From: Acaryochloris marina MBIC11017
GTDB taxonomy: Bacteria; Cyanobacteriota; Cyanobacteriia; Thermosynechococcales; Thermosynechococcaceae
NCBI RefSeq assembly: GCF_000018105.1
Contig: NC_009925.1
Location: forward strand, 5,400,001 to 5,432,000
Reading direction: 5' to 3'
Length of the DNA stretch: 32,000 nucleotides
Below the pieces are notes generated by a model. That model was not told the origin of the DNA. It saw only the letters and a list, made by a program, of their open reading frames with translations, and searched no databases. The position numbers and the translations under genes are program-made. Of this stretch, positions 668 through 19,635 are shown in pieces. Each line of letters opens with the position of its first letter. Position 1 is the stretch's first letter.

Positions 668-899
668 TGCTAAATCTTGGGCTTTTGAAATGCATTGGAT
701 AGAAGCTCAAACTCACTGATCACAGCAGGTTTGTTCGTTATGTTACTTAAATTAGCAATTCTTAGTAGAGTAATTCTGTAACGGTTCTTACGGTTTGATA
801 GTTTCAATGGCAATACTATGCGAAAAATGCAATTTAATAATTCAAAAATTGCATTTTCTAGAAATTGAAATTATTTTCAAGTTAATTATTCTGATCCAT

Positions 900-1952
900 T
901 TAAGAATCTAGATTGACTGAAATTTTTAAGATTCCAGCACTACCATCTTTGCCATTTTTATCCTGAATTTTTTGCGTTTCTGTTCGCGACCTCGCCTGGG
1001 CCAGCAGCTTGTACGTCCCTGGTTGAGTTGGCTTCCAGAGATATCGCCAGAGGGTCCATTCATGGGGAGAGCTGGGCTGGTTGATTTCAGCTTCCGTCCA
1101 AGTCTGCCCATTATCCGTACTAATTCTGACCCATTCCATGGGCTGGGCCTGGTCAATCGCCACCCCCGCAACAGTCACTCCTCTCTGCCATCCTTCTTCT
1201 CCTGTGCGAGGTAGATCGACATGGTAGTTTTTATTCCAGACTTTCTCCTCTTGGACCTGCTGAGTGATGGCATGGGTGGCAATCTTGGCAGTATTCGACC
1301 AGCCCTGACGTTCCCAATATCCTTTTTTGGGGGTGGCAATCGCCTCAATTTCCGTTAGCCATTTGGGTTGCTTTTGGCCATACCGCCCCGGAATGATAAT
1401 CCGCACAGGAAAACCATGGGCTTTCGTTAGGGGTTCCCCATTCATCCGATGCACGAGCTGCACATCTGGTCTCATCAAATCGATAACGGGCAAAGTCGTC
1501 TCGTAGGAGTCAGCCGCATGAAGTAAAAATTCAACAGCCTTGTCCTGTACTCCCACTTGTTTAAGAAAGGGCGATAATGGCGTCCCTGTCCACAGGGCAT
1601 TGCCGATTTGCTTTCCTCCAGTACGATTGCCAATGCACTCCATCGTTAAATAAAACTCCGTTTGGGGAGCCGCTAGAATATCGTCAAATTTTAGGGGCAG
1701 CGGTTGCTCCACCAGACCTGTCAACTGCAGTTGCCATGTGTTGAGATCGACATCTGGGGGTGACGCATAGGATTGCACATAAAACTCACCGACTGGGGTT
1801 ATTCGATGATCCGGTAAGGGCCGCTCAAATTGTCGTAAATCAGCAGAGAACAAAAGGTGCAAGTGCTGATGGTTTACACATCCTGGTAGGAATGTTGCAC
1901 ATATCCCACCAGATGCTTGCAAAAGTCGCTTTAATGCCTGACGACGTTTCAT
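900..1952 (-). CDS. molybdopterin-dependent oxidoreductase, sulfite-oxidase family, Tat-exported
   Basis: N-terminal twin-arginine-like signal (MKRRQALKRLLQASGG). The TMECIGN motif carries the conserved Mo-ligand Cys. A C-terminal Ig-like dimerisation-type region is typical of SorA/SUOX-like proteins. Confidence 0.85.
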   Translation of the reverse strand: MKRRQALKRLLQASGGICATFLPGCVNHQHLHLLFSADLRQFERPLPDHRITPVGEFYVQSYASPPDVDLNTWQLQLTGLVEQPLPLKFDDILAAPQTEFYLTMECIGNRTGGKQIGNALWTGTPLSPFLKQVGVQDKAVEFLLHAADSYETTLPVIDLMRPDVQLVHRMNGEPLTKAHGFPVRIIIPGRYGQKQPKWLTEIEAIATPKKGYWERQGWSNTAKIATHAITQQVQEEKVWNKNYHVDLPRTGEEGWQRGVTVAGVAIDQAQPMEWVRISTDNGQTWTEAEINQPSSPHEWTLWRYLWKPTQPGTYKLLAQARSRTETQKIQDKNGKDGSAGILKISVNLDS

Positions 1953-2089
1953 AAACTGTTGCCCCCTTCAATCTCTGCTGTTTCTAAGCAATTGCCTGGC
2001 TCTAGCTTAAAGGAACAATCTAAGGACAACCTGAGAGAGTATAGATGGCACACCAAGGAATCAGGCTAGGGCTGGCAAAGGAAAAGGAA

Positions 2090-2530
2090 TTATTGCGCCA
2101 ATTCTATCGATTCCTCAAAGATTTGGACTTCATCAAAAGGACAGGATTGAGGGAGTTCCTGGAGATTAAGAGGTGTGTCCTGCTCGACCACAATTAGAGC
2201 TAAGGGATAAGCCCATTCAATTGCCTCAGGCAAATAAGGTTTCAAGCTAGGATTTTCCTTGACTAGCCGAACAATTCGATACCGTTGCTCTCGAATCGTA
2301 CCTGTCCAAGATCGAGAACGGGCCTCTGGCTGGTCATACCACTTCAGCAGATGACCCAACAGAACGCCCAATCGATTGCGAAGTTCTTGCCGTTCCTGCC
2401 GACCCAACGATTCAATTTCCTCAACTAGATTTTGAATATCTACTTGCTCCCACTGCTGCGCCTTAATCAGCTCGATTTGACGTTGCGTCCAAGCGTAAAA
2501 ATCTTGCTCATAAAGGGTAGTGGTTTGCAT
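2090..2530 (-). CDS. DUF29 family protein
   Basis: The N-terminus YEQDFYAWTQRQIELIKAQQWEQVDIQNLVEEIESLGRQERQEL is the characteristic DUF29 signature common in cyanobacteria. Confidence 0.85.
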   Translation of the reverse strand: MQTTTLYEQDFYAWTQRQIELIKAQQWEQVDIQNLVEEIESLGRQERQELRNRLGVLLGHLLKWYDQPEARSRSWTGTIREQRYRIVRLVKENPSLKPYLPEAIEWAYPLALIVVEQDTPLNLQELPQSCPFDEVQIFEESIELAQ

Positions 2531-2987
2531 GGGAGCTTTCGCACTGATTTCATCCTTATTCTGGCATGTTCAGATTTAGTCCGTTGCTGCGATCGCACAT
2601 TCCACTACAGGATAAGATGACAAACGATCAGTAGCTTGACAGGGTTCATTAATCCCTAAGCTCAAACGATTACAACCTATACATTCAAGCCCTATTCAAT
2701 AGATCTTATTGGAGAGGACGCACCGCCAGGCGTTACCACGTCGGTTAGCCCCTTCGACAAAATACGTTGGTACCTCTCGCTCAGCATCGATCAGAAGCTC
2801 TGTTGCATGCAAGACTTGTCTGTGGAGTAAGTCTTTTTGGGCAATTTATTAACAGATCATCTGCAAGTCGGCGTTCTAAATCGTTATTCACTGCTCTACC
2901 ACCGTGGGCAACGCAACCAACAAGTGATTCAGGTTGAGGTGCTGCTTGCTAATCAATATGAGCTGTTCTTTTATCGAGAAGATATCA

Positions 2988-3806
2988 ATGACAAGGTTCC
3001 GTTTTTCAGCTTTTGTACTCGTCATCCTCAGTGCCTCTTTAGGGGGCTGTTCATTTTTGAACCAAACATCAGCTGGGAATAATAGTCGTGCAAACCTGGA
3101 ATCATTTTGTGAGGAAGCAATCAACAACAGCGAAAGTACCAATCGTCCCCAACCTGAAGCACCGACTATTCTGGGGACAAGTCCTGAACAAGCTTGGGTC
3201 CGTCCAAGCTTCAAGGGTCCTGATGGGCGATTTGGTGCGGGAACGGCTTTCGTTGTGAGTCAAGATAATGCCGTTTTCTTACTAACGGCACACCATCTGT
3301 TTGGTCCGGCTGGAGGGTTAGACCGCGAATATAGATGGTCAGAAATGCCAAATCTCGTCTCTGGTGCGTCAGGAGAGAACCCTCTCGGCAAGGTTTCAGT
3401 CATCACAGGGAAAGCACTTCCAGTTAAGGGGGCTCGCGGTATGCAGGGAACTCAATTAAATGCGGACCTTGCTATCTTTCCAGTTCAATCGGAAAGCCAA
3501 GTGCACGCTATGCCCCTTGCCCAAACCCTCCCTCAAGTTGGTGATGATGTATGGCTAGTGGGTGAAGTCATCGGTAGCTCTGAATATCGGCACAAAGCTG
3601 TCGTGAATGAAGTTTCGAAGGAAGGCATATATTACCGTTTTGATAACAAGATTGAACTCCGGGCAACGAGTGGTGCCCCCATCGTGGATGCGAAGGGACA
3701 GGTAGTCGCGATGAATCTTGGCGGCGGAGAATATCAGGGGGCCATTATGGGGATTGGCAACCCAGCACCTGTTATGAACTGCCATTTACAGGCCGCTTGG
3801 CATTGA
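2988..3806 (+). CDS. trypsin-like serine protease, predicted lipoprotein
   Basis: The ORF-track start at 2934 is probably over-extended. The Met at 2988 gives a signal peptide plus lipobox (FVLVILSASLGGC). A His (LLTAHHLFG), Asp (DLAIF) and Ser (ATSGAPIV) triad pattern is present. Confidence 0.7.
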   Translation: MTRFRFSAFVLVILSASLGGCSFLNQTSAGNNSRANLESFCEEAINNSESTNRPQPEAPTILGTSPEQAWVRPSFKGPDGRFGAGTAFVVSQDNAVFLLTAHHLFGPAGGLDREYRWSEMPNLVSGASGENPLGKVSVITGKALPVKGARGMQGTQLNADLAIFPVQSESQVHAMPLAQTLPQVGDDVWLVGEVIGSSEYRHKAVVNEVSKEGIYYRFDNKIELRATSGAPIVDAKGQVVAMNLGGGEYQGAIMGIGNPAPVMNCHLQAAWH

Positions 3807-5220: not shown

Positions 5221-5919
5221 ATGACACAACTATTGCCTGTCAAAAAGATAATTTTCCTGACTCTTGGCCTTATCAGCATAAGTCAATCTACCGGACAAAA
5301 TCTCGCACCAGCAATAGCACAAAACGCTTCATTAATCCCTTCGGAGTTTACCCAAAAACAGTCTGATTTATTGCTTTATGGGGGGCCTCGAACCAGATCT
5401 CCATTAGTGCAATGGTATCTCGAAGAACTAGCCGTCTCCTATCAGTATATTTCTTTAGATATCCGGGGGCAGGAACAGCGGCAGCCTGAATTTTTAGCCA
5501 TCAATCCTATGGGAAAAGTTCCAGCAATGGTAGATGGAACTTTTAAATTATGGGAGTCCGGTGCCATTCTCCTGTATTTAACTGACAAATACGGAAAAGA
5601 GCCTCAATCTATCGAAGAAAGAGCCCTCTTAAACCAGTGGGTGATCTTCGCCAATGCCACCTTAGGACCCGGGCTATTTCGCGAAGATCGACGAGAACGG
5701 GAAATGCCAAGATTACTGGCACCTTTAAATGACATCTTTAAACAACAGCCCTTTATCCTTGGCTCTGAACTCAGTGTCGCAGATGTAGCGGTAGGTTCAT
5801 ACTTGTACTATGCCAAACTCGGGCTATCTCTAGATTTTAGCGACTATCCAGCAGTCGAGACCTATCTCAATCGCCTCTCAAAGCGACCGGCATTTATCAA
5901 GACCATGGGACAGCGATAA
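5221..5919 (+). CDS. glutathione S-transferase family protein with N-terminal hydrophobic extension
   Basis: A GST N-domain (LLLYGGPRTRSPLVQWYLEEL, NPMGKVPAMVDG, LWESGAILLYL) and C-domain are present. The Met at 5221 gives a signal/anchor-like segment (KKIIFLTLGLISISQS). The ORF-track start at 5128 overlaps the upstream gene. Confidence 0.8.
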   Translation: MTQLLPVKKIIFLTLGLISISQSTGQNLAPAIAQNASLIPSEFTQKQSDLLLYGGPRTRSPLVQWYLEELAVSYQYISLDIRGQEQRQPEFLAINPMGKVPAMVDGTFKLWESGAILLYLTDKYGKEPQSIEERALLNQWVIFANATLGPGLFREDRREREMPRLLAPLNDIFKQQPFILGSELSVADVAVGSYLYYAKLGLSLDFSDYPAVETYLNRLSKRPAFIKTMGQR

Positions 5920-5962
5920 AGTCGCACCAATCGACACTGGCCATGACTCCCTCAGTGGTGGC

Positions 5963-6676
5963 TCATCCGTTTACGAGTGATTGGAGAGTTGGATCCGTAA
6001 AGTCTTGGATACAGTATTCGGCTCCTGCCTGTGTCAATTCCGCTTCTGAGTGGGTGGTGAGGACGCCCCAGCATCGCATTCCCGCATTTCGCGCCGCTTG
6101 CGTACCTGCGATCGCATCTTCAAATACCAAGCATTGATCCGGTGAAACCCCCAATCGTTCTGCCACCAACAGATAACACTGTGGATCGGGTTTGCCCCGA
6201 TCCACATCCGTTTCAATCACCTGGGCTGCAAAGAAGTCCCCAAGCTGGTCTTGATTCATCAACAAATCCACATTTTCACGGCAGGCAGAGGTGCCCAAGC
6301 CTAGTTTCAGTCCGATGGCCTGAGCCTGTTGCAAAAAGGGAATCAACCCAGGCATCCACTGAATCTCATCCTGAATCAAAGAACGATAAACGGCTTCCTT
6401 CTCAGCCCCCCAACGCTGGATATCAGCAGCGGCCACGGGATGTCCTAGTAATTCCGGCAATAGATCTTCATTCCGTTTGCCTCCCATTTGCTCTAAACGG
6501 TCTCGGCTAGCCACGGCGAGTTCTGGAATCGTCGCACTATACTGCACCCAAGCATCCAGATGATAGGGCATCGTATCGCAAAGAACTCCATCCATATCGA
6601 AGATCAGAGCTTGTAGGGGTAATGCAAAATTTGCAACGGCTTGATTTTGAGGAGAGACAGACGCTTGTTCATTCAT
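5963..6676 (-). CDS. HAD-superfamily hydrolase, beta-phosphoglucomutase-like subfamily IA
   Basis: Motif I is LIFDMDGVLCDT, motif II GLGTSA, and motif III/IV K...VFEDAIAGTQAA. Confidence 0.85.
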   Translation of the reverse strand: MNEQASVSPQNQAVANFALPLQALIFDMDGVLCDTMPYHLDAWVQYSATIPELAVASRDRLEQMGGKRNEDLLPELLGHPVAAADIQRWGAEKEAVYRSLIQDEIQWMPGLIPFLQQAQAIGLKLGLGTSACRENVDLLMNQDQLGDFFAAQVIETDVDRGKPDPQCYLLVAERLGVSPDQCLVFEDAIAGTQAARNAGMRCWGVLTTHSEAELTQAGAEYCIQDFTDPTLQSLVNG

Positions 6677-6764
6677 CGAGCAAAGGATCCAAAACTGAAC
6701 ACACCGTAGAAAACATGCTAACTTTTATAAAGTTTATTTAAGCATTCTGCCTGCCCTTTGCCCT

Positions 6765-7232
6765 ATGACTTTGTCAAAACTCTTGTACTGGATCTATACC
6801 TTCATTCATCCAGTCCTGATGTGGACACTGTTTGGTATCTGTATCTATGCCATGACCTTAGGGCTGAAGGTTCGCACCACCCGCACCACCCCTGACAAAG
6901 ATCTGCGCAAATCTCTGATTAAACAGCGCTTCAATATCAAGCATCATCAAATTGGGGCAATCCTGTTATCAATTATGGTCCTCGGCTCCATTGGCGGTAT
7001 GGGGGTCACCTATATCAACAACGGCAAACTGTTTGTAGGAGCGCACCTATTGGCAGGGCTAGGGATGACAGGACTTGTAGCCATCTTGGCAAGTCTCACG
7101 CCTCTGATGCAGCGAGGCAGTCAAACCGCCCGTGATGTCCATTTATGGCTAAGTGTATTGATTTTGGGCCTCTTTGGTTGGGAAGCCATTACCGGTATGC
7201 AGATTGTGCAACGGATTATCGAACAGGGCTAG
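6765..7232 (+). CDS. DUF4079-like integral membrane protein
   Basis: Four predicted TM helices and conserved His residues (HHQIG, GAHLLAG) resemble the cyanobacterial/plant DUF4079 family. Confidence 0.55.
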   Translation: MTLSKLLYWIYTFIHPVLMWTLFGICIYAMTLGLKVRTTRTTPDKDLRKSLIKQRFNIKHHQIGAILLSIMVLGSIGGMGVTYINNGKLFVGAHLLAGLGMTGLVAILASLTPLMQRGSQTARDVHLWLSVLILGLFGWEAITGMQIVQRIIEQG

Positions 7233-7287
7233 AAACCCTCACCGCAACGTAATATTGTTAACATAAGTTCACCTATCCACCATAGAT

Positions 7288-7761
7288 ATGACCTCTACAG
7301 CAAGTTCTAATCGTTGGCTCACTCTTTTATTTCAGTCCACCTCGGACACAACCGTTTGGTTCCAAGTAGCCTTGACGATCTTGCGAGTCATCGTCAGCTT
7401 TTTCATGATTCACAACGGCGTTGATAAGTTAGCCGATGTGGATGGATTTGCCACCAACGTGGTTGCCAATGGAATGGGCCTACCTTTCCCCGTATTCCTC
7501 ACCTATTGCTCCGCCTATGCTGAAATCATCGGTTCTATTCTGCTGATTTTTGGTCTGCTCAGTCGGCCTGCAGCCTTATCGTTGTTCTTCACCATGGTGA
7601 TGGCAATTTACTTCCATATCAAAGTCGATGGCCTCCAAATTGGGTCCTTTGAAACTGCCACCCTCTATGCCTGTTCCTTTCTCTTTTTCCTGGTCAATGG
7701 CGGTGGTCAATATTCTCTCGATGCTTTGATTAGCAATCAGCTAGGCGGCTCTAAAGAGTAG
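7288..7761 (+). CDS. DoxX family membrane protein
   Basis: ILRVIVSFFMIHNGVDKL plus four TM helices, and the YAEIIGSILLIFGLLSRPAAL pattern, are typical of DoxX. Confidence 0.8.
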   Translation: MTSTASSNRWLTLLFQSTSDTTVWFQVALTILRVIVSFFMIHNGVDKLADVDGFATNVVANGMGLPFPVFLTYCSAYAEIIGSILLIFGLLSRPAALSLFFTMVMAIYFHIKVDGLQIGSFETATLYACSFLFFLVNGGGQYSLDALISNQLGGSKE

Positions 7762-9260: not shown

Positions 9261-9719
9261 TTATTCAGGAACAACTTCCACTTTGACGGTAGCAATGACT
9301 TCTGGGTGGAGCTTAATATCCACGGAGTAGGTTCCCAGCTTGCGGATATCAGGGATATCAATGCCCCGTTTGTCGATTTCGAAACCGCTGATATTGGCGA
9401 TAAGTTCGGCAACATCAGGAGAGGTTACCCGACCGAACAGCATATCTTCTTCGCCGGCCTTTTGTTCAATGCGGAAGGTGCCAATGGTTTGAAGGGCGAC
9501 CTTTTGTTTTGCGGCCTCGTCCTTAATGCCTTCTAGACGCTTGAGTTCTTCGGCTTTGCGATGCTCAATCTGCTTGAGCACGCCAGGAGTAGCTCGGTAA
9601 GCGATTCCTTTCGGAATTAAATAGTTGCGGGCATATCCAGGCGCAACTTCAACTAGGTCTCCTGAATAACCCAGTTTTCTAACATCTTCATTCAAAACGA
9701 GCTGAACGCGTTTTCCCAT
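9261..9719 (-). CDS. rplI: 50S ribosomal protein L9
   Basis: VQLVLNEDVRKLGYSGDLVEVAPGYARNYLIPKG is the canonical L9 N-domain. The gene sits immediately upstream of dnaB, as in many bacteria. Confidence 0.97.
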   Translation of the reverse strand: MGKRVQLVLNEDVRKLGYSGDLVEVAPGYARNYLIPKGIAYRATPGVLKQIEHRKAEELKRLEGIKDEAAKQKVALQTIGTFRIEQKAGEEDMLFGRVTSPDVAELIANISGFEIDKRGIDIPDIRKLGTYSVDIKLHPEVIATVKVEVVPE

Positions 9720-9859
9720 GGCCCTAAGTGCGTCGATACATAAATTTCAGTGAAAGCACTTGATCATACCTAACTTAGAGGTGCTTTGGCAATGTCAATT
9801 TTCGAGTGCCTAAGAACCGCTGATAGGTAGGGGTCGATAACAGGTGATTTTAAAAATGG

Positions 9860-9911: not shown

Positions 9912-9993
9912 GGGTCGGTGCCCGAGTGGTTAATGGGGGCGGACTGTAAATCCGCTGGCTACGCCTACGCTGGTTCAAATCCAGCCCGGCCCA
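9912..9993 (+). tRNA. tRNA-Tyr (anticodon GTA), class II with long variable arm; CCA not encoded
   Basis: The acceptor stem is GGGTCGG/CCGGCCC. The anticodon arm is GCGGA-CTGTAAA-TCCGC. The variable arm is GGC-TAC-GCC and the T-arm GCTGG-TTCAAAT-CCAGC, with discriminator A. Confidence 0.95.
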
Positions 9994-10006
9994 TTGTCTT
10001 CGATTT

Positions 10007-10078
10007 GCCCATGTGGCTCAGTGGTAGAGCACACCCTTGGTAAGGGTGAGGTCACCGGTTCAATCCCGGTCATGGGCT
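10007..10078 (+). tRNA. tRNA-Thr (anticodon GGT); CCA not encoded
   Basis: The acceptor stem is GCCCATG/CATGGGC and the D-arm GCTC-AGTGGTA-GAGC. The anticodon arm is CACCC-TTGGTAA-GGGTG and the T-arm ACCGG-TTCAATC-CCGGT. It lies 13 nt after tRNA-Tyr. Confidence 0.95.
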
Positions 10079-10462
10079 TTAACTAGAAAATCGGCAGCAT
10101 TTCTCTAGAACGTTTCAATCTCATGCGTTGAGGTGAGAATCATCACAATGCAGGACGCTGCTCTTATGAGAGATAATTTCCATCTCTTTAATTTTCTGAC
10201 ATCTATTGATAACAAAGCTAGCATGGCGATATTTAGAATCGTCTTGTTACCGAGTACACCCCACACCCTAATGACATAAATCCTTAGCAGAGAATACTCA
10301 AAGGCTGGTGAAGTCTACAACCTGGCTTGTATGAAGGTGATTAAGGCGGGCAGGTTAGCTCTGGCTACCAATGGCATCTCCTCAGTCATAAACAGTTCTG
10401 TCAATCTTTTCATACAGACCTAATCAATACATTTTTAATTTTGGCAATCGAGAGGTGATTTT

Positions 10463-11200
10463 ATGAAGCTTAATCAGCTTATTGCTGTCATGCAGTCCGT
10501 GAAAAAAAGAGCTGCAGACGAAAAGACAAAGATATACAAACAGATTCAAAAACCTGAGCTATTTCAAGGTTTGTCGCGGACCTACTCACCGAAGGATGAA
10601 GAAGGCCACGTCTATCCCCCCGAGTCTCAAAAGGTCACATATAAGGCGGGAGATGCGCTAGAAGCCTTTTCAAGGGCCTGCCAAGATTTATTTGACAGTG
10701 CTTTGACCCAAGATGAAGCCAATACCTCAGCAAGGGCCAACATCACCTTGGATGACGGTACAGTAATTGCGTCAGATGTCCCAGTCACATACTTGATGTT
10801 CTTAGACAAGCAGTTGACTGATATCAGGACATTTATCAGCCATATCCCGATCTTGCCCATTGATGAAGACTGGGAATATGACTCTAACCGAGGGTTTTAT
10901 GTCACTCGCCCTCGCGAAACCACTAAGACCAAGAAGGTACAAGAGTTTGTGATCGCTGCCGAGGCAACCGAACATCACCCAGCCCAGGTCAAAGAGGTCA
11001 CCAACGATGTAGTTGAAGGAACTTGGTCTTTGGTTAAGTTCTCTGGTGCTTTGCCACAGTCAGAACTAGATGAAATGCGACTTCGACTGGATGCACTTCA
11101 AAAAGCTGTTATCAAAGCTAGAGAGGAAGCCAATAGCATCGAAATAACTCGAAGAACTATATCGAATAACATTTTTGACTATTTATTTGGGCAGCGTTAG
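10463..11200 (+). CDS. uncharacterised 245-aa protein with no domain recognised by eye
   Basis: A strong SD (GAGAGGTGA) ends 4 nt before the ATG. It is the only long ORF on this strand in the AT-rich islet. The composition looks soluble, with a helical N-terminus, an EATEHHPAQV motif and a C-terminal coiled-coil-like segment (LRLDALQKAVIKAREEAN). Confidence 0.75.
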   Translation: MKLNQLIAVMQSVKKRAADEKTKIYKQIQKPELFQGLSRTYSPKDEEGHVYPPESQKVTYKAGDALEAFSRACQDLFDSALTQDEANTSARANITLDDGTVIASDVPVTYLMFLDKQLTDIRTFISHIPILPIDEDWEYDSNRGFYVTRPRETTKTKKVQEFVIAAEATEHHPAQVKEVTNDVVEGTWSLVKFSGALPQSELDEMRLRLDALQKAVIKAREEANSIEITRRTISNNIFDYLFGQR

Positions 11201-11228
11201 ATTGAACAAGAGCATAGATTTAGATTCA

Positions 11229-11316
11229 GTATCAAAAAAAGTGATTGGATGGTTCAAATCCTCCCTCTCGCATCCTTAAGCGAGAGTATGCTAATGGGTA
11301 AAGCAGCTTTTGATAC
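11229..11316 (+). ncRNA. circularly permuted tRNA-like RNA A (YrlA/Y-RNA-like architecture)
   Basis: Reading 5' to 3', the closing strand is GTATC-AAA-AAAAG (11229-11241), followed by a 5-nt linker TGATT. The T-arm is GGA(T)GG-TTCAAAT-CCTCC (11247-11264). The 7-bp acceptor-like helix pairs CTCTCGC (11265-11271) with GCGAGAG (11280-11286) and is capped by the loop ATCCTTAA. TA then occupies the U8-A9 positions. The D-arm is TGCT-AATGGGTAA-AGCA (11289-11305). The closing strand CTTTT-GATAC (11307-11316) pairs back to the 5' end, leaving a 3-A bulge. Confidence 0.6.
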
Positions 11317-11387
11317 ATTAAGGCTAAAAAATTAAACTCAGTTTATTGCTCTAGTCTTAATCTAAAATCCACTCTTGTGAATCAACC

Positions 11388-11496
11388 AAAGCTCAACAAC
11401 ACATGGGATATACGAGTTCAACTCTCGTCCCGCTCCCCAAATCTTGAGCGGGTAGTTTAATGGCAAAACACCCTTGTATTAAGCTGATTGAGCTTT
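11388..11496 (+). ncRNA. circularly permuted tRNA-like RNA B (YrlA/Y-RNA-like architecture)
   Basis: The outer helix pairs AAAGCTCAA (11388-11396) with TTGAGCTTT (11488-11496). The inner helix pairs AACACATGGG (11398-11407) with CCCTTGTATT (11471-11480) at 8 of 10 positions. The T-arm ACGAG-TTCAACT-CTCGT (11412-11428) is perfect. The 7-bp acceptor-like helix pairs CCCGCTC (11429-11435) with GAGCGGG (11446-11452), with loop CCCAAATCTT. TA follows, then the D-arm GTTT-AATGGCA-AAAC (11455-11469). Confidence 0.65.
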
Positions 11497-11540
11497 AATC
11501 AGACATAAACTAGTCACAAGTTAATGGCTCTAATGCATTG

Positions 11541-11576
11541 AACCCCGGCAGGCGGTATTTGCCGGGGTTTGTCTTT
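11541..11576 (+). terminator. strong intrinsic terminator closing the ORF245 plus tRNA-like RNA unit
   Basis: A GC-rich 9-bp stem pairs AACCCCGGC (11541-11549) with GCCGGGGTT (11561-11569) around an 11-nt loop. A T-rich run TTTGTCTTT spans 11568-11576, its first two Ts closing the stem. On the minus strand the tail is poor, so it is mainly plus-strand. Confidence 0.8.
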
Positions 11577-12059: not shown

Positions 12060-12536
12060 TTACAACATAATCGTCGTCGCTTCATTCTCATCTAATAGAG
12101 ATGAGCAACCATATTGAGTAATCTGCGAAAAATCAGCCAAGGAATCCTCTTTAGTTATGATCTGACTAGATGAATAAAAAACCGCCTTGATCACCCCTCC
12201 AAACAAAATTCGATCGCCATTCACTAGAGTATGTCTTTGAACACGGCTGCCATTGACAAAGACACCATTAAAGCTCGATTTGCCATCAACCACACCATCA
12301 ATCAGTTCATATTGATAAGTTCCTTGGCTTAAATCAGATATCTTCTCCACAGTGGCATGGATACGGGAAATCATATCATTGGCTACAACAATATCACTGG
12401 ATGAATCTCGACCAATGGTGTACTTCCAGTTCATTAATGTGACTATTTTTTTAGGCTTTGTGTTAATAACAAGATAATGATGCTGCTTGAAGTGATGTGT
12501 TTGTTGATACATACTATTTCTGTATATGCATATCAA
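12060..12536 (-). CDS. stand-alone FHA-domain protein
   Basis: The FHA signature is YTIGRDSSSDIVVANDMISRIHATV ... SSFNGVFVNGSRV ... LVNGDRILFGG. The start is ambiguous: the Met at 12536, or the Met at 12512 (MYQQTHH). Confidence 0.8.
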   Translation of the reverse strand: MICIYRNSMYQQTHHFKQHHYLVINTKPKKIVTLMNWKYTIGRDSSSDIVVANDMISRIHATVEKISDLSQGTYQYELIDGVVDGKSSFNGVFVNGSRVQRHTLVNGDRILFGGVIKAVFYSSSQIITKEDSLADFSQITQYGCSSLLDENEATTIML

Positions 12537-16242: not shown

Positions 16243-16272
16243 ATTATAATAGTCGAGTAAAGAGCAGCTAAA
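16243..16272 (-). promoter_or_regulatory. possible promoter of the invertase gene
   Basis: On the minus strand, TTTAGC (16267-16272) is followed by 18 nt and then a perfect TATAAT (16243-16248). The site overlaps the stop codon of the upstream kinase gene. Confidence 0.35.
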
Positions 16273-17494
16273 GACAGTTTTTCAGCGCTTGCTGCAGTTC
16301 TTTGGCACTTTGGAACCGATGATCCGGATGGGGATGGGTTACTTTTTCAATAATGGCTTTAATCTGAGTGGGAATGCTGAGGATATTGGCCAATTCAATC
16401 CGATAGCCATGGCCCAGATTTTTGTAGAACTGCAATGGACTTTGCCCAGTAATCAAAAACAAAAGCGTCGCACCAATGCCATAGAGATCCGATTGAATGG
16501 TAGGACGGCCTAAGCCCTGTTCTGGAGCACTGTAACCCTCAACGGCAATCCGGGTTCCAGGGACGAGGCTTGCTTCTTTAACCGCACCAAAATCAATAAT
16601 GAAAACTTGGCTATCTCGATTCCGAACCAAAATATTACCGGGTTTCAAATCTCGATGAATAATCGGTGGGTCATGATGATGAATATAGTCCAAAATGTCA
16701 CAGGCCTGAATCATCCATTGCAGCACTTGATGTGGTGGCAATGGGCCACGTTGGTTCACCCACCGATCTAAATCTTGGCCATGAATCAGCTCCATCACCA
16801 GGTATTGCTTTTCATTCTCGGTAAAAAAATCGTACAAGCGGGGAATACCAGCATGCTGCAAGGATCTCAACATCCGCGCTTCCCGTTTGAATAATTCCTG
16901 TGCTTTAGGAATTTTTTCCATATCGGCATTCATTTCCTTGAGCACCTGAAGCTGTGGTTTTCTACTCTTATCATCCAGGTGCCGCACCAAGAATGTAGTT
17001 CCCATGCCCCCCATACCAATGACCTTCAACACTTCGTAAGGACCAATTGTCTGGAGAACATTCAGAGATTGACCACAATGTACGCAAAAAAGGTTGCCAG
17101 GTAAATTCCCAAAATGGGAGCAGGAAGAACTCTGAGAGCGAGTGGTTGCGGATTGACGTTTGGCTTCAATCTCGTGGGGAAGTTGCTGCTGAAATCTCAA
17201 AATCGGGCCTGTCAATCCTAGCTGAATAATCGTGTCATTTTTAATTTCTGTCTGGTTCGTCAGCTTCCCGTTTACGAACGTTCCATTACTGCCCAGACTC
17301 TTGATTTGCCAGGTAAAGGAGGACTCTATGTGTTTGATCAGGTGCAGTTCAAGGTGATAACGAGACACCAGTATGTCTCTGAGAACAATGTGATTATCGG
17401 AAGAACGGCCAATATTAATTTGCTTAGACGTGGTGAAGAGCCATTGTCTGATAGGAGCCTTATTAGTGGGATCAAGAAGGGTTAATGTAACCAC
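16268..17494 (-). CDS. FHA domain / zinc-ribbon / Ser-Thr protein kinase fusion
   Basis: The N-terminal FHA domain reads INIGRSSDNHIVLRDILVSRYHLEL ... GSNGTFVNGKL. A Cys pair motif CSHFGN..CVHCGQ follows. The Hanks kinase motifs are GMGGMGTTF, VLKE, HRDLKPGNIL, DFG and SAPE. Confidence 0.9.
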   Translation of the reverse strand: MVTLTLLDPTNKAPIRQWLFTTSKQINIGRSSDNHIVLRDILVSRYHLELHLIKHIESSFTWQIKSLGSNGTFVNGKLTNQTEIKNDTIIQLGLTGPILRFQQQLPHEIEAKRQSATTRSQSSSCSHFGNLPGNLFCVHCGQSLNVLQTIGPYEVLKVIGMGGMGTTFLVRHLDDKSRKPQLQVLKEMNADMEKIPKAQELFKREARMLRSLQHAGIPRLYDFFTENEKQYLVMELIHGQDLDRWVNQRGPLPPHQVLQWMIQACDILDYIHHHDPPIIHRDLKPGNILVRNRDSQVFIIDFGAVKEASLVPGTRIAVEGYSAPEQGLGRPTIQSDLYGIGATLLFLITGQSPLQFYKNLGHGYRIELANILSIPTQIKAIIEKVTHPHPDHRFQSAKELQQALKNCL

Positions 17495-17535: not shown

Positions 17536-19635
17536 TTAATAGGTCTGGGAAGATCGCTGAGGTTGGACTCTCATCAGGATGGCAATGACCGTTATATTGT
17601 CGTGACCATTATGTTCGTTAGCCAGCATTACTAGCTCATTGACCCCTTGTTGCAAGGTAACTTGAGAGTTAAGCATGGGCAATAAGTATTGGTCACAGTG
17701 GACTTCCAGTAGGTGATTATCGGTTAATCCATCGGAACAAATCAACAATAAAGTATCTTCGGATGCTGTTAAGAGCTGGATATCTGGCTCTAATGCCTCA
17801 TTCTCTCTAGGTCCTAAGGCTTGAGTGAGTTGATAGGCATCTGGCCGGGCATAGGCCACTGCAGGATCGGTGCCTCGTTGAATCTCTCGTTGCCCCACCT
17901 CATGGTCCACGGTGATTTGCTCTAATCCGGATTGATGGGTCAAGCGATATAAACGACTATCACCGACATGAGCAATTTGAATATGCGTATCTTGCACCAG
18001 CGCCATCACTAAGGTGGTGCCCATCCGATTATTCCCCGCCTTCTCCTCATTCAGCTGAAAAAGAGCATGGTTCGCTGCATAAATGGCGTCCTTCACAATC
18101 GCAGTATCAGGGAATTCAGTCTGCCAATGGGCTTGAAAATATTGCGTTAGGGTCTCCGTGGCCAAAGAACTCGCAATCTCTCCCCCCGCATGTCCACCCA
18201 TACCATCACAGAGGATATAGAGGCCTTGACCAGACACATGATTCTGATGGGGATTACAAATTTGTTGCAGTCGCTGATCAATCGCAAAATAATCTTCATT
18301 ATGATGTCGATCTCGACCATCATCGGTTTGGCCTGCCGCCGCCAAATGAACCAACTGATTGGGTAGGATCAGGGTTGGCGCAGCACCAGTTTCAGCCCCT
18401 GAAGACTGGTGAGCCTGGGTGTGAGTTATAGAGGGCTGGAGGCTAGGCAGGCGCTGACTTAATTCATTTAAGTATTCCAGCAGCTCTGCTTGGGTAACAT
18501 TTTCAGCCGATTGCAAATTATCCAACAAGGGCTGAAATTGCTCTAAAAGAGAAGCTCCTAATCCTTGCAATAAATCTAACCAGACATATCTTAAATCGTC
18601 CCAGGTCGGGGATTGGATGGAGGTACTCCCCTTTTCGGACTTGCCGGGCCAGAACTGACCGGGTTCAAATAGGAGTTGCTGAAGGCACAGGATTTGTCCC
18701 TGATCGACTTTCAAATTTTCTTTGTTGAGAACACTAGGCAAGCATTGCCAGGGTGCACAAACGACTGCAAAGTTCAGGGTTTGCTCTAACCAGTACAGAA
18801 TTTGAGTGGGACTCGCCTGCCCCTCGGCAATGACTTCCTTTAATGAGGGTAAGTCAGCGCGGTTCTCTAATAAGATGACCGCCTGTTGTTCTGACTGCCA
18901 AGCATCATGAACATGAGGAAGTAGGAGAGGAAACTGTTGCCTCAAGGCTAAGTAAGGCTCTAGAACGATTGGGAAAGGTAAAGGCTGCGCTTCCAAAAAA
19001 CCCTTAATCGTTTCTGGTTGCCCCATGTCAGCGGGATTGATGGTTCCCTCTAGTTGGTTCAGCATGATCGCAAGAGGAGAAACCTGCAGTGGCTGCGTAT
19101 CTAGAATCGTGAGTTCGAGATTGCCATTCTCTGCCAGTTTCGGGTCTTGAGGCACCATTGATGCCAATAGCTGATATCGAGGGTTCTGATCCAAAAAACT
19201 CTGGATAGCAGGAGACAGAGATGGAATCTTTGAGTCACTCGACTGCTGTAACACTGCTGTCGAGGAACCAGAGGAACTGAGTTCCACAGTATCTATTTCT
19301 CCATCAGACTGATCACCCACTAAGCGTTCAATTGAGTCTAATAGCTCTTCTGTTGAAGGCTCCTCATCCAAAAGGGCAACAGATTCTCCCATAGGAATCG
19401 TCTCGACTGCAGACAGCTCTGCCATGGTGGGGGATGGGTCGAGGTTAGGCAGTGGGGTAATTAGCGTCCACCAGATTGTGCCGGTTAAATGATCACATTG
19501 GGGACAGTGAGTCACCTCAAAATCTACTAAATGTCCACAATTTGCACAGTGTTTTTGAGTCAGGGAAGTGCCACATTGTTGACAGAAACGATGATCGTCA
19601 ATGTTGTGATAATTACACTGGGGACATTTAATCAT
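17536..19635 (-). CDS. double zinc-ribbon protein with C-terminal PP2C-family Ser/Thr phosphatase domain
   Basis: The N-terminus carries CPQC..CQQCG and CANCG..CPQC. The C-terminal PP2C motifs are HHNEDYF, LCDGMGGHAGGE, HVGDSRLY, CSDGLTD and GHDNITV. The gene ends 41 nt upstream of the kinase gene, so the two probably form an operon. Confidence 0.9.
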   Translation of the reverse strand: MIKCPQCNYHNIDDHRFCQQCGTSLTQKHCANCGHLVDFEVTHCPQCDHLTGTIWWTLITPLPNLDPSPTMAELSAVETIPMGESVALLDEEPSTEELLDSIERLVGDQSDGEIDTVELSSSGSSTAVLQQSSDSKIPSLSPAIQSFLDQNPRYQLLASMVPQDPKLAENGNLELTILDTQPLQVSPLAIMLNQLEGTINPADMGQPETIKGFLEAQPLPFPIVLEPYLALRQQFPLLLPHVHDAWQSEQQAVILLENRADLPSLKEVIAEGQASPTQILYWLEQTLNFAVVCAPWQCLPSVLNKENLKVDQGQILCLQQLLFEPGQFWPGKSEKGSTSIQSPTWDDLRYVWLDLLQGLGASLLEQFQPLLDNLQSAENVTQAELLEYLNELSQRLPSLQPSITHTQAHQSSGAETGAAPTLILPNQLVHLAAAGQTDDGRDRHHNEDYFAIDQRLQQICNPHQNHVSGQGLYILCDGMGGHAGGEIASSLATETLTQYFQAHWQTEFPDTAIVKDAIYAANHALFQLNEEKAGNNRMGTTLVMALVQDTHIQIAHVGDSRLYRLTHQSGLEQITVDHEVGQREIQRGTDPAVAYARPDAYQLTQALGPRENEALEPDIQLLTASEDTLLLICSDGLTDNHLLEVHCDQYLLPMLNSQVTLQQGVNELVMLANEHNGHDNITVIAILMRVQPQRSSQTY

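Follow-up and report, generated by a model that had tools for sequence, protein, structure and literature searches.

Permuted tRNA-like RNAs tied to DUF7873 in bacteria and phages look like an undescribed cousin of Ro60/Y-RNA particles

The DUF7873 locus of Acaryochloris marina

A stretch of 32,000 nucleotides (nt) from Acaryochloris marina MBIC11017 (contig NC_009925.1, positions 5,400,001 to 5,432,000), referred to below as the window, holds a small RNA element, RNA B, in which the parts of a transfer RNA (tRNA) occur in permuted order. RNA B is situated 180 nt downstream of a paralogous element, RNA A, and 190 nt past the stop codon of a gene encoding a protein of the Pfam family DUF7873 (Table 1). 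An earlier note on this DNA had described RNA B as a match to the YrlA-type Y RNAs, which are bound by Ro60/Rsr; the partner DUF7873 went unnoticed there. As the comparative data set out below demonstrate, RNA B is tied genetically to DUF7873, not to Ro60, and DUF7873 together with RNAs A and B is a self-contained three-part module of bacteria and phages.

Table 1. Features of the window (positions in nt from its first letter; bp, base pairs; aa, amino acids)
Feature	Position	Strand	Basis or remark
RNA B, whole element	11374-11520	+	comparative data extend it beyond 11388-11496
RNA B, P0 helix 5' strand CTTGTGA	11374-11380	+	complement of 11514-11520; 24 strand variants covary
RNA B, junction motif ATCAACC (consensus ATCGACC)	11381-11387	+	conserved in relatives
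RNA B, P1 (outer) helix 5' strand AAAGCTCAA	11388-11396	+	8 pairs, both sides change in all; 81.9% paired
RNA B, internal-loop bases before P2	11397-11400	+	
RNA B, P2 (inner, anticodon-stem-like) helix 5' strand	11401-11407	+	5-7 conserved pairs with covariation
RNA B, variable-loop equivalent ATAT; last base U48 is the Levitt partner of A15 (11460)	11408-11411	+	
RNA B, T arm ACGAG-TTCAACT-CTCGT, 5-bp stem	11412-11428	+	99.3% paired
RNA B, acceptor 3' strand CCCGCTC	11429-11435	+	sequence, covariation
RNA B, capping loop CCCAAATCTT, 10 nt	11436-11445	+	
RNA B, acceptor 5' strand GAGCGGG	11446-11452	+	sequence, covariation
RNA B, U8-A9 (TA)	11453-11454	+	
RNA B, D arm GTTT-AATGGCA-AAAC, 4-bp stem	11455-11469	+	D stem 97.4% paired with covariation
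RNA B, base 26	11470	+	
RNA B, P2 helix 3' strand	11471-11477	+	alignment
RNA B, internal loop 3' side, conserved GCTGAT (consensus GACTGAT)	11478-11487	+	alignment
RNA B, P1 helix 3' strand TTGAGCTTT, 9-bp outer helix with 11388-11396	11488-11496	+	alignment
RNA B, 3' junction P1-P0; consensus elsewhere CTTAAACG..., window divergent here	11497-11513	+	
RNA B, P0 helix 3' strand TCACAAG	11514-11520	+	covariation
DUF7873 protein gene, 245 aa	10463-11200	+	Pfam PF25283, E 1.6e-96, full-length
Leader strand AGAGCA, outer helix enclosing RNA A	11209-11214	+	pairs with 11347-11352
RNA A, paralogous permuted tRNA-like domain (about 11217-11346)	core 11230-11316	+	sequence; R1 match
RNA A, closing stem	11230-11242 with 11307-11316	+	sequence
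RNA A, T arm, one bulged T	11247-11264	+	sequence
RNA A, 7-bp acceptor hairpin	11265-11286	+	sequence
RNA A, D arm	11289-11305	+	sequence
Linker strand TGCTCT, within highly conserved ATTGCTCC block	11347-11352	+	pairs with leader
Terminator-like hairpin AACCCCGGCA / 9-nt loop / TGCCGGGGTT, then TGTCTTT	11541-11576	+	read from sequence
tRNA-Tyr and tRNA-Thr genes, 385 nt upstream of DUF7873, same strand	9912-10078	+	ARAGORN, Rfam
FHA-domain protein	12060-12536	-	
FHA plus Ser/Thr kinase	16268-17494	-	
Zinc-ribbon PP2C phosphatase	17536-19635	-	

Structure and conservation of RNA B

Read from 11412 to 11469, RNA B has the order of a tRNA that is open at the anticodon loop and has its acceptor ends connected. 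Its core is that of the tRNA L-shape, comprising a T arm, a D arm, a 7-bp loop-closed acceptor helix and all universal tertiary nucleotides, and it stands, at the place of the anticodon loop, on at least three stem helices (P2, P1 and P0) with sequence-conserved internal loops between them. The permuted order with a perfect T arm, a 7-bp acceptor and a 4-bp D stem is present exactly where the earlier note had placed it. When the window and 80 related loci were scanned for motifs, RNA B was the only perfect match to the T-arm/7-bp-hairpin/D-arm pattern in the window. ARAGORN and the Rfam tRNA model called just tRNA-Tyr and tRNA-Thr in the window, not RNA B, and Rfam at gathering thresholds returned only tRNAs and an unrelated Streptomyces small RNA from the window and 13 related loci. 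The single-sequence fold of RNA B has a z score of -4.33, which none of 200 shuffles equalled.

The fold was assessed in an alignment of 29 diverse relatives from seven phyla, with slid pairing partners and shuffles as controls. RNAalifold, applied to the whole 330-nt region, gave the tRNA-like cores only, with the stems misaligned, and the stems were therefore tested separately. Over the five helices, 89.8% of the cells are paired, compared to 40-46% with slid partners, and 30 of the 32 pairs show compensatory changes on both sides; none of 500 shuffles matches the observed values. Structural conservation and covariation in related genomes, on which the earlier note had made its proposal depend, are hence found in these 29 relatives, and its suggestion that selection acts on structure is borne out by the compensatory changes. 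The acceptor helix is 7 bp long and 100% paired in all 29 sequences, with covariation at every one of its seven pairs, while both-side changes occur at four of the five T-stem pairs and three of the four D-stem pairs. Invariant bases are G53, T54, T55, C56, A58 and C61 in the T arm as well as U8, G10, A14, G18, G19 and C25 on the D-arm side. At the Levitt 15:48 pair, 29 distinct relatives have A:U and eight have G:C, with no exception among these 37.

In the stem, the proposed 9-bp outer helix (P1) is likewise present, with eight conserved pairs that all change on both sides. The inner helix (P2) had been put at about 10 bp; the helix itself exists, but only 5-7 bp of it are conserved, and the rest is a conserved internal loop between P2 and P1 with ACGAAC/AACAAC on its 5' side and GACTGAT on its 3' side. 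Similarly, the structure at 11388-11496 that had been delimited at about 109 nt is real but incomplete, as the enclosing helix P0 extends the element to 11374-11520. P0 is formed by 6-7 nt just 5' of ATCGACC with a hexamer about 18 nt past the outer helix; among 50 distinct relatives, 45 pair at six of six positions, compared to only 19% of shuffles, and the strands occur in 24 different sequences. The junction motif ATC[AG]A[CT]C is found in 41 of 64 distinct relatives, phage copies included, and in many taxa an additional helix beyond P0 is seen. A local hairpin, CTGATT/AATCAG, which had been considered as a competitor of the outer helix, is not conserved, its 3' arm being CTTAAACG or AACTGGAAAT in other sequences. 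A covariance model built from the 29-sequence alignment (R1) matches the window at 11380-11514 with 91.2 bits, the window sequence being part of the R1 seed.

Linkage of the RNAs to DUF7873 in bacteria

DUF7873 comprises 2137 homologue clusters, with about 48% identity between cyanobacterial and actinobacterial proteins. A scan of one genome per species provided at least 573 DUF7873 loci, 80 of which were kept for analysis. These span Cyanobacteria, Streptomyces, Actinomadura, Planctomycetota, Ktedonobacterales, Deinococcales, Anaerolineales and Deltaproteobacteria, and the trio of DUF7873, RNA A and RNA B is present in 78 of them. In nearly all 80 loci, the motif scan located two permuted tRNA-like elements straight after DUF7873, and the roughly 330 nt from the DUF7873 stop codon to the end of RNA B are conserved across phyla. 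With R1, a B-type RNA (74-137 bits) on the same strand as DUF7873 and adjoining it was detected in 82 of 84 sources, the matched ones belonging to Cyanobacteria, Actinomycetota, Planctomycetota, Chloroflexota, Deinococcota, Myxococcota and Deltaproteobacteria; A-type RNAs are matched across the sources as well (23-45 bits). Two Myxococcales contigs have the RNAs upstream of DUF7873, with the adjacency kept. The genes that flank the DUF7873-RNA loci are not conserved.

In these two contigs (L081 and L082), from a marine Myxococcales lineage, RNAs A and B are located at 9504-9764 and DUF7873 at 10001-10738, and a gene for a tRNA-dihydrouridine synthase (Dus) lies about 8 kb away.

The AlphaFold2 model of DUF7873 is confident (predicted local distance difference test, pLDDT, 90.5; predicted template modelling score, pTM, 0.74) and consists of long helices and a long beta-hairpin. 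A Foldseek search with this model gave no match at E <= 0.001 in PDB or BFVD (best E about 0.013, with a template modelling score, TM, of about 0.14). DUF7873 had no matches in the NCBIfam, PADLOC and PDB sequence profile searches, and a single weak match (E 0.068) in PHROG. Literature searches yielded no paper mentioning DUF7873 or PF25283, and nothing relevant on YrlA outside rsr loci or on tRNA-like RNAs in Streptomyces, cyanobacteria or phages.

Linkage of the RNAs to DUF7873 in phages

According to tblastn searches, DUF7873 is encoded in 75 phage genomes, whose host genera are Vibrio (29 genomes), Gordonia (12), Rhizobium (12), Klebsiella (7), Serratia (6), Arthrobacter (3), Pseudanabaena (2), Ralstonia (2), Rhodococcus (1) and Microcoleus (1). 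Each of the six phage loci that were examined has, after DUF7873, an unannotated gap of 350-1100 nt, which holds a B-like RNA and usually an A-like RNA, too. The trio, or at least the B-like RNA, is thereby found in phages of Gordonia, Arthrobacter, Pseudanabaena, Klebsiella, Vibrio and Rhizobium, with a protein that is only 28-45% identical. The B-like RNA scores 89.3 bits with R1 in Arthrobacter phage Mimi, 84.8 bits in Gordonia phage Phendrix, 60.6 bits in Pseudanabaena phage Pam2 and 33-42 bits at three proteobacterial phage loci. Phendrix has DUF7873 in the middle of its tRNA array, and the gene lies directly next to tRNA genes in Mimi, Vibrio D497 and Rhizobium RHph_Y1_11.

A scan of IMG/VR with an RNA-first pattern led to 121 matches, most of which (92) are tandem tRNA genes; the pattern is not B-specific. 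The scan delivered 29 permuted candidates, whose identifiable neighbours are either Ro60-like (TROVE or DUF2828+DUF7788) or DUF7873. On one viral contig (L121), a DUF2828+DUF7788 protein (845-2275, minus strand) is encoded beside two permuted tRNA-like RNAs, matched by R1 at 2939-3059 and 3250-3385. The DUF2828+DUF7788 protein may represent a third, Ro60-like class of partner.

RNA A, the linker and the end of the transcript

RNAs A and B, which the earlier note had kept apart for their different primary sequences, are indeed separately conserved paralogues. RNA A is matched by R1 at 11217-11346 of the window with 28 bits, and the T, acceptor and D helices of A-type RNAs covary in 20 relatives. 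It is enclosed by a helix between leader and linker, in which 82.8% of the cells pair, compared to 33-55% when slid, and four of the six pairs change on both sides.

The D arm of RNA A is characteristic (TAGCCCAA..GGCAGAGGC in most taxa), and few sequences in the whole region are as strongly conserved as the linker block ATTGCTCC/CTCGCTCC. In several Streptomyces (L011, L068 at about 6810-6930, and others), the RNA A core is swapped for a short hairpin, AGCGG...CCGCT, with the leader and linker motifs staying in place. To judge by these sequences, the stem and the motifs appear to be the indispensable part of RNA A, and not the tRNA-like head. A combination of the RNA A D arm with the RNA B T arm into one canonical unit, in the style of the RNAs of Picosynechococcus PCC 7002 (see below), was rejected: the acceptor strands are non-complementary, and each hairpin is perfect and covarying on its own.

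The terminator-like hairpin downstream is GC-rich and strong and begins 20 nt past the end of RNA B. It is probably an intrinsic terminator that ends a DUF7873-A-B transcript. The terminator scan missed it, because the loop limit of the scan was 8 nt and the hairpin loop measures 9 nt. In the same promoter/terminator scan, promoter-like matches ahead of RNAs A and B occurred at chance frequency.

The capping loop and RNase P

A further claim of the earlier note concerned the CCA in the capping loop, which it read, speculatively, as a potential 3' end. A CCA is present at this place in merely four of 82 relatives, which rules out a conserved CCA; judging from these relatives, the encoded CCA of the window RNA B is a local accident. 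The length of the capping loop of RNA B ranges from 5 to 62 nt, and large insertions are tolerated. Examples are insertions of about 220 nt in the RNA A loop of a Chamaesiphon (L003, about 6830-7060), 62 nt in the RNA B loop of a Cuspidothrix (L010, 2842-3031) and 31 nt in the capping loop of an Anaerolineales (L076, 6930-7084), along with capping loops of about 30 nt in three phages (L088, L089 and L090). The loop could thus be a permissive site, or it may be removed.

Of 54 distinct loops, 44 are followed by a G at +1, and 44 have a pyrimidine at -1. These preferences, the invariant 7-bp acceptor and the variable loop make RNA B fit an RNase P substrate. Its cleavage by RNase P is plausible by analogy with the YrlA RNA of Mycobacterium smegmatis, an RNase P-cleaved, CCA-tailed two-piece Y RNA that is cleavable owing to its 7-bp acceptor (PMC4201824).

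Relation to Ro60 and YrlA

YrlA RNAs have the design of a tRNA mimic that is circularly permuted and carried by a bulged stem of several helices (Chen et al. 2014, PMC4201824; Wang et al. 2018, bioRxiv 10.1101/312249), with the rsr product as partner. No TROVE/Ro60 domain was found among the 13 other window open reading frames (ORFs) scanned with Pfam, nor did tblastn reveal one anywhere in the window when Ro60 proteins of cyanobacterial, human and actinobacterial origin served as TROVE queries. Likewise, tblastn detected no TROVE gene within 6-10 kb in 90 of 91 DUF7873 loci, the exception being Nonomuraea. Among phages, TROVE occurs in 353 genomes with host genera largely different from those of the DUF7873 phages, and of the 75 genomes of the latter, at least 61 have no TROVE. 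The motif GNCGAAN0-1G, the presumed Rsr contact, was not found in the window and is absent in 53 of 64 distinct relatives; ten of the 11 relatives that possess it come from one Streptomyces subgroup, which has GACGAACG. Hence, of the assignment to YrlA in the earlier note, the design holds (permuted mimic, bulged stem), but not the membership in the Rsr-bound family.

The Rfam YrlA model (RF02553) aligns RNA B end to end with 31.3 bits (E 7.7e-5; gathering score 69), while the B RNAs of Streptomyces and Nonomuraea reach 28.7 and 27.9 bits, respectively. True rsr-linked RNAs also stay below 69 bits (31 in PCC 7002 and 51 in Nonomuraea), and since the PCC 7002 RNAs score only 31 bits, the cut-off of 69 is an unfair test for cyanobacteria. 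As a positive control, the rsr locus on plasmid pAQ7 of Picosynechococcus PCC 7002 (L084) was analyzed, which carries three tandem tRNA-like units (5418-5820) upstream of rsr (5875-7476). These units match R1 with their core only (24-30 bits) and read best in canonical, non-permuted order, with 7-bp acceptor stems (GAACGGA/TCCGTTC, then GCCA; GGGCAGG/CCTGTCC; GGAGACG/CGTCTCC) and an insert of 50-70 nt with GGGTCGCTG at the place of the anticodon loop.

The only locus with Ro60 beside DUF7873 is that of Nonomuraea gerenzanensis (NZ_LT559118.1; L211, 5522-11137, minus strand). It encodes, in this order and on one strand, two tRNA-like RNAs, Ro60 (TROVE + vWA_Ro60), a DUF5997 ORF, a 177-aa ORF, DUF7873, RNA A and RNA B; the DUF5997 and 177-aa ORFs are absent from the other DUF7873 loci. 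With the Rfam YrlA model, the rsr-proximal RNA scores 51 bits and RNA B 27.9, whereas with R1, RNA B scores 99.9 bits over its full length and the rsr-linked RNAs reach 35-42 bits with their core only. These reciprocal scores separate both kinds of RNA and thus define the RNA B family as distinct from YrlA. It is unlikely that the closeness of Ro60 and DUF7873 in a replicon of 11.85 Mb is accidental, which is a hint that both systems are functionally related.

Neighbouring genes

The surroundings in the window are cyanobacterial-type housekeeping genes (DnaB, L9, MsrA, invertase and a cluster for FHA, kinase and PP2C proteins). Ser/Thr kinase genes near DUF7873 are also found in a Kitasatospora (L083) and in one of the Myxococcales (L081); the kinase neighbourhood is probably a coincidence.

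Interpretation

Based on the comparative data, the DUF7873-linked tRNA-mimic RNAs would constitute a new family that probably forms a ribonucleoprotein. A DUF7873-RNA particle analogous to Ro60-Y RNA is the most likely explanation of RNA B, and we favour it with some reserve. In such a particle, DUF7873 and RNAs A and B would derive from a single transcription unit. DUF7873 may then bind to the conserved internal loops of the stems, much like Ro60 on the Y RNA stem, so that the tRNA-shaped heads would be exposed on the ribonucleoprotein and could engage tRNA-recognizing factors. As an acceptor with a T arm suffices as a minimal substrate for RNase P and the capping loop can vary freely, RNA B would probably be nicked before G11446; subsequent trimming could afford a two-piece RNA comparable to that of M. 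smegmatis. The particle might serve to manage or mimic the tRNA pool during infection or stress, and the position in phage tRNA arrays suggests a role on the tRNA pool. Conceivably, an unrecognized Ro60-independent DUF7873-RNA system has spread horizontally, borne on phage tRNA arrays, and acts on or imitates the tRNA pool in stress or in conflicts between phage and host. We offer this proposal tentatively, as a possibility that is open to considerable doubt. Such a system could act as a decoy, or as a sensor, towards tRNA-targeting nucleases, or it might provide an RNase P-made, CCA-tailed two-piece RNA.

Several observations weigh against a DUF7873-RNA particle of this kind. The contact between DUF7873 and the RNAs is deduced from gene adjacency alone, and the protein is mildly acidic (isoelectric point about 5.6), with no recognizable RNA-binding fold. 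Spirulina sp. SIO3F2 (L005) has DUF7873 without detectable RNA A or B within 9.8 kb, and at another locus (L001) an insertion seems to have cut RNA B (6933-6991) short behind the acceptor 5' strand. The plain hairpin that some Streptomyces carry as RNA A core means that the tRNA-like head can be dispensable. At its start, the capping loop has three conserved bases, U/G-C-U, which is not expected of a loop that is merely discarded; this conserved start (UCU) indicates that the capping loop is not a mere spacer. In Nonomuraea, Ro60 is encoded just 2.5 kb from DUF7873, and both systems may cooperate instead of being alternatives.

Among the rival explanations, RNA B could be an ordinary YrlA whose Rsr/Ro60 is encoded elsewhere; DUF7873 would then be either a bystander or an effector accessory to the Ro60 particle. 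Topology and tRNA-like core are the same, and RNA B aligns to the YrlA model over its full length with a score that the rsr-linked RNAs of PCC 7002 do not exceed, one of which has the 20-nt D arm of RNA B. The GACGAACG of the Streptomyces subgroup and the rsr gene 2.5 kb from DUF7873 on the same strand in Nonomuraea point in this direction as well. Nonetheless, such an assignment is unlikely given the lack of TROVE in nearly all loci and in at least 61 complete DUF7873 phage genomes, the missing GNCGAAN0-1G in the window and most relatives, the different stem motifs (ATCGACC, GACTGAT and CTTAAACG), and the separate RNAs that the Rsr of Nonomuraea has of its own. Another improbable account confines RNAs A and B to a function in cis, either as processing or stabilizing signals (RNase P, exonucleases) or as an autoregulatory 3' untranslated region, in DUF7873 or tRNA-array transcripts. 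It would be in keeping with RNAs that always adjoin the gene on the same strand and nearly always follow it, with the single terminator-like hairpin after RNA B, with a module among co-oriented phage tRNA genes and with promoter-like matches at chance level. It does not agree with the RNAs lying upstream of the gene in Myxococcales; moreover, two conserved paralogues with long stems and invariant internal-loop sequences exceed the needs of a processing signal, and the whole set of tRNA tertiary contacts has been kept.

The tRNA halves in permuted order would also be compatible with a functional tRNA encoded by a permuted gene of the kind found in Cyanidioschyzon merolae, or with a two-piece transfer-messenger RNA (tmRNA); permuted tmRNA genes exist in cyanobacteria. 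Both readings are extremely improbable and can be regarded as effectively refuted. No anticodon loop can be rebuilt, as the P2/P1 loop varies in size (5+11 nt in Streptomyces and, with the conserved register, 4+10 nt in the window), and this internal loop of 14-16 nt is followed by two more helices, with no bulge-helix-bulge (BHB) motif. ARAGORN, which is able to detect permuted tmRNA, calls none in the window. A G:U never occurs at the 3:70 pair in the 29-sequence alignment, RNA B has a full D stem, unlike tmRNA, and Rfam gives no tmRNA or group I intron match. Aminoacylation of RNA B by alanyl-tRNA synthetase (AlaRS) was ruled out as well, on account of the missing G3:U70.

With a DUF7873-RNA particle as the favoured explanation, several implications follow. 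Bacterial Y-like RNAs that mimic tRNA have until now been defined by their link to Ro60, and DUF7873 adds a second, widespread protein partner, which has co-evolved with two such RNAs over at least seven bacterial phyla and many unrelated phages. The Pfam family DUF7873 thereby gains a testable function in the form of an RNA partner, and an RNA family new to Rfam is defined. One small gene and two small RNAs make it possible to study the purpose of tRNA mimicry in an independent system, with Streptomyces, Nostoc/Anabaena, Gordonia phages and Klebsiella or Vibrio phages as tractable hosts. The position in phage tRNA arrays points towards a tRNA-centred conflict between phage and host.

Comparison with known systems

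In a canonical tRNA, the acceptor ends are free and an anticodon loop is present; RNA B has its acceptor ends joined by a loop and a stem in place of the anticodon loop. With the permuted tRNA genes of C. merolae and with two-piece tmRNA it shares the order, that is, the 3' half comes first and the acceptor ends are joined by a stretch that RNase P can remove. Unlike these, RNA B has no anticodon loop, BHB motif, tag reading frame or G3:U70, and it cannot decode. The rsr-linked units of PCC 7002 bear a local resemblance, as unit 1 and RNA B have the same D arm (TAGTTTAATGGCAAAACACC) over 20 nt. Yet these units adjoin rsr, carry GGGTCGCTG and are non-permuted, the first with an encoded GCCA, whereas RNA B is permuted. 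M. smegmatis YrlA resembles RNA B in its 7-bp acceptor and as a minimal RNase P substrate, and a cut in RNA B would likewise leave two paired halves. It differs in being located upstream of rsr and bound by Rsr, while the cleavage of RNA B is putative.

The closest parallel is YrlA in general. Like RNA B, it is composed of a permuted T arm, a closed acceptor stem-loop and a D arm on a stem formed by the RNA ends, it shows covariation of the Levitt pair, it commonly occurs in two or more copies beside a protein gene, and it is found in bacteria and phages. The partner of YrlA is rsr and that of RNA B is DUF7873. The T and D stems are nearly invariant in YrlA but covary in RNA B; the acceptor varies in length in YrlA (6 bp in Salmonella) and strictly has 7 bp in RNA B; and the stem motif GNCGAAN0-1G of YrlA contrasts with ATCGACC, GACTGAT and CTTAAACG in RNA B. 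The reading as YrlA was therefore right on design and wrong on family and partner, and the DUF7873 module looks like an undescribed cousin of the Ro60/Y-RNA particles.

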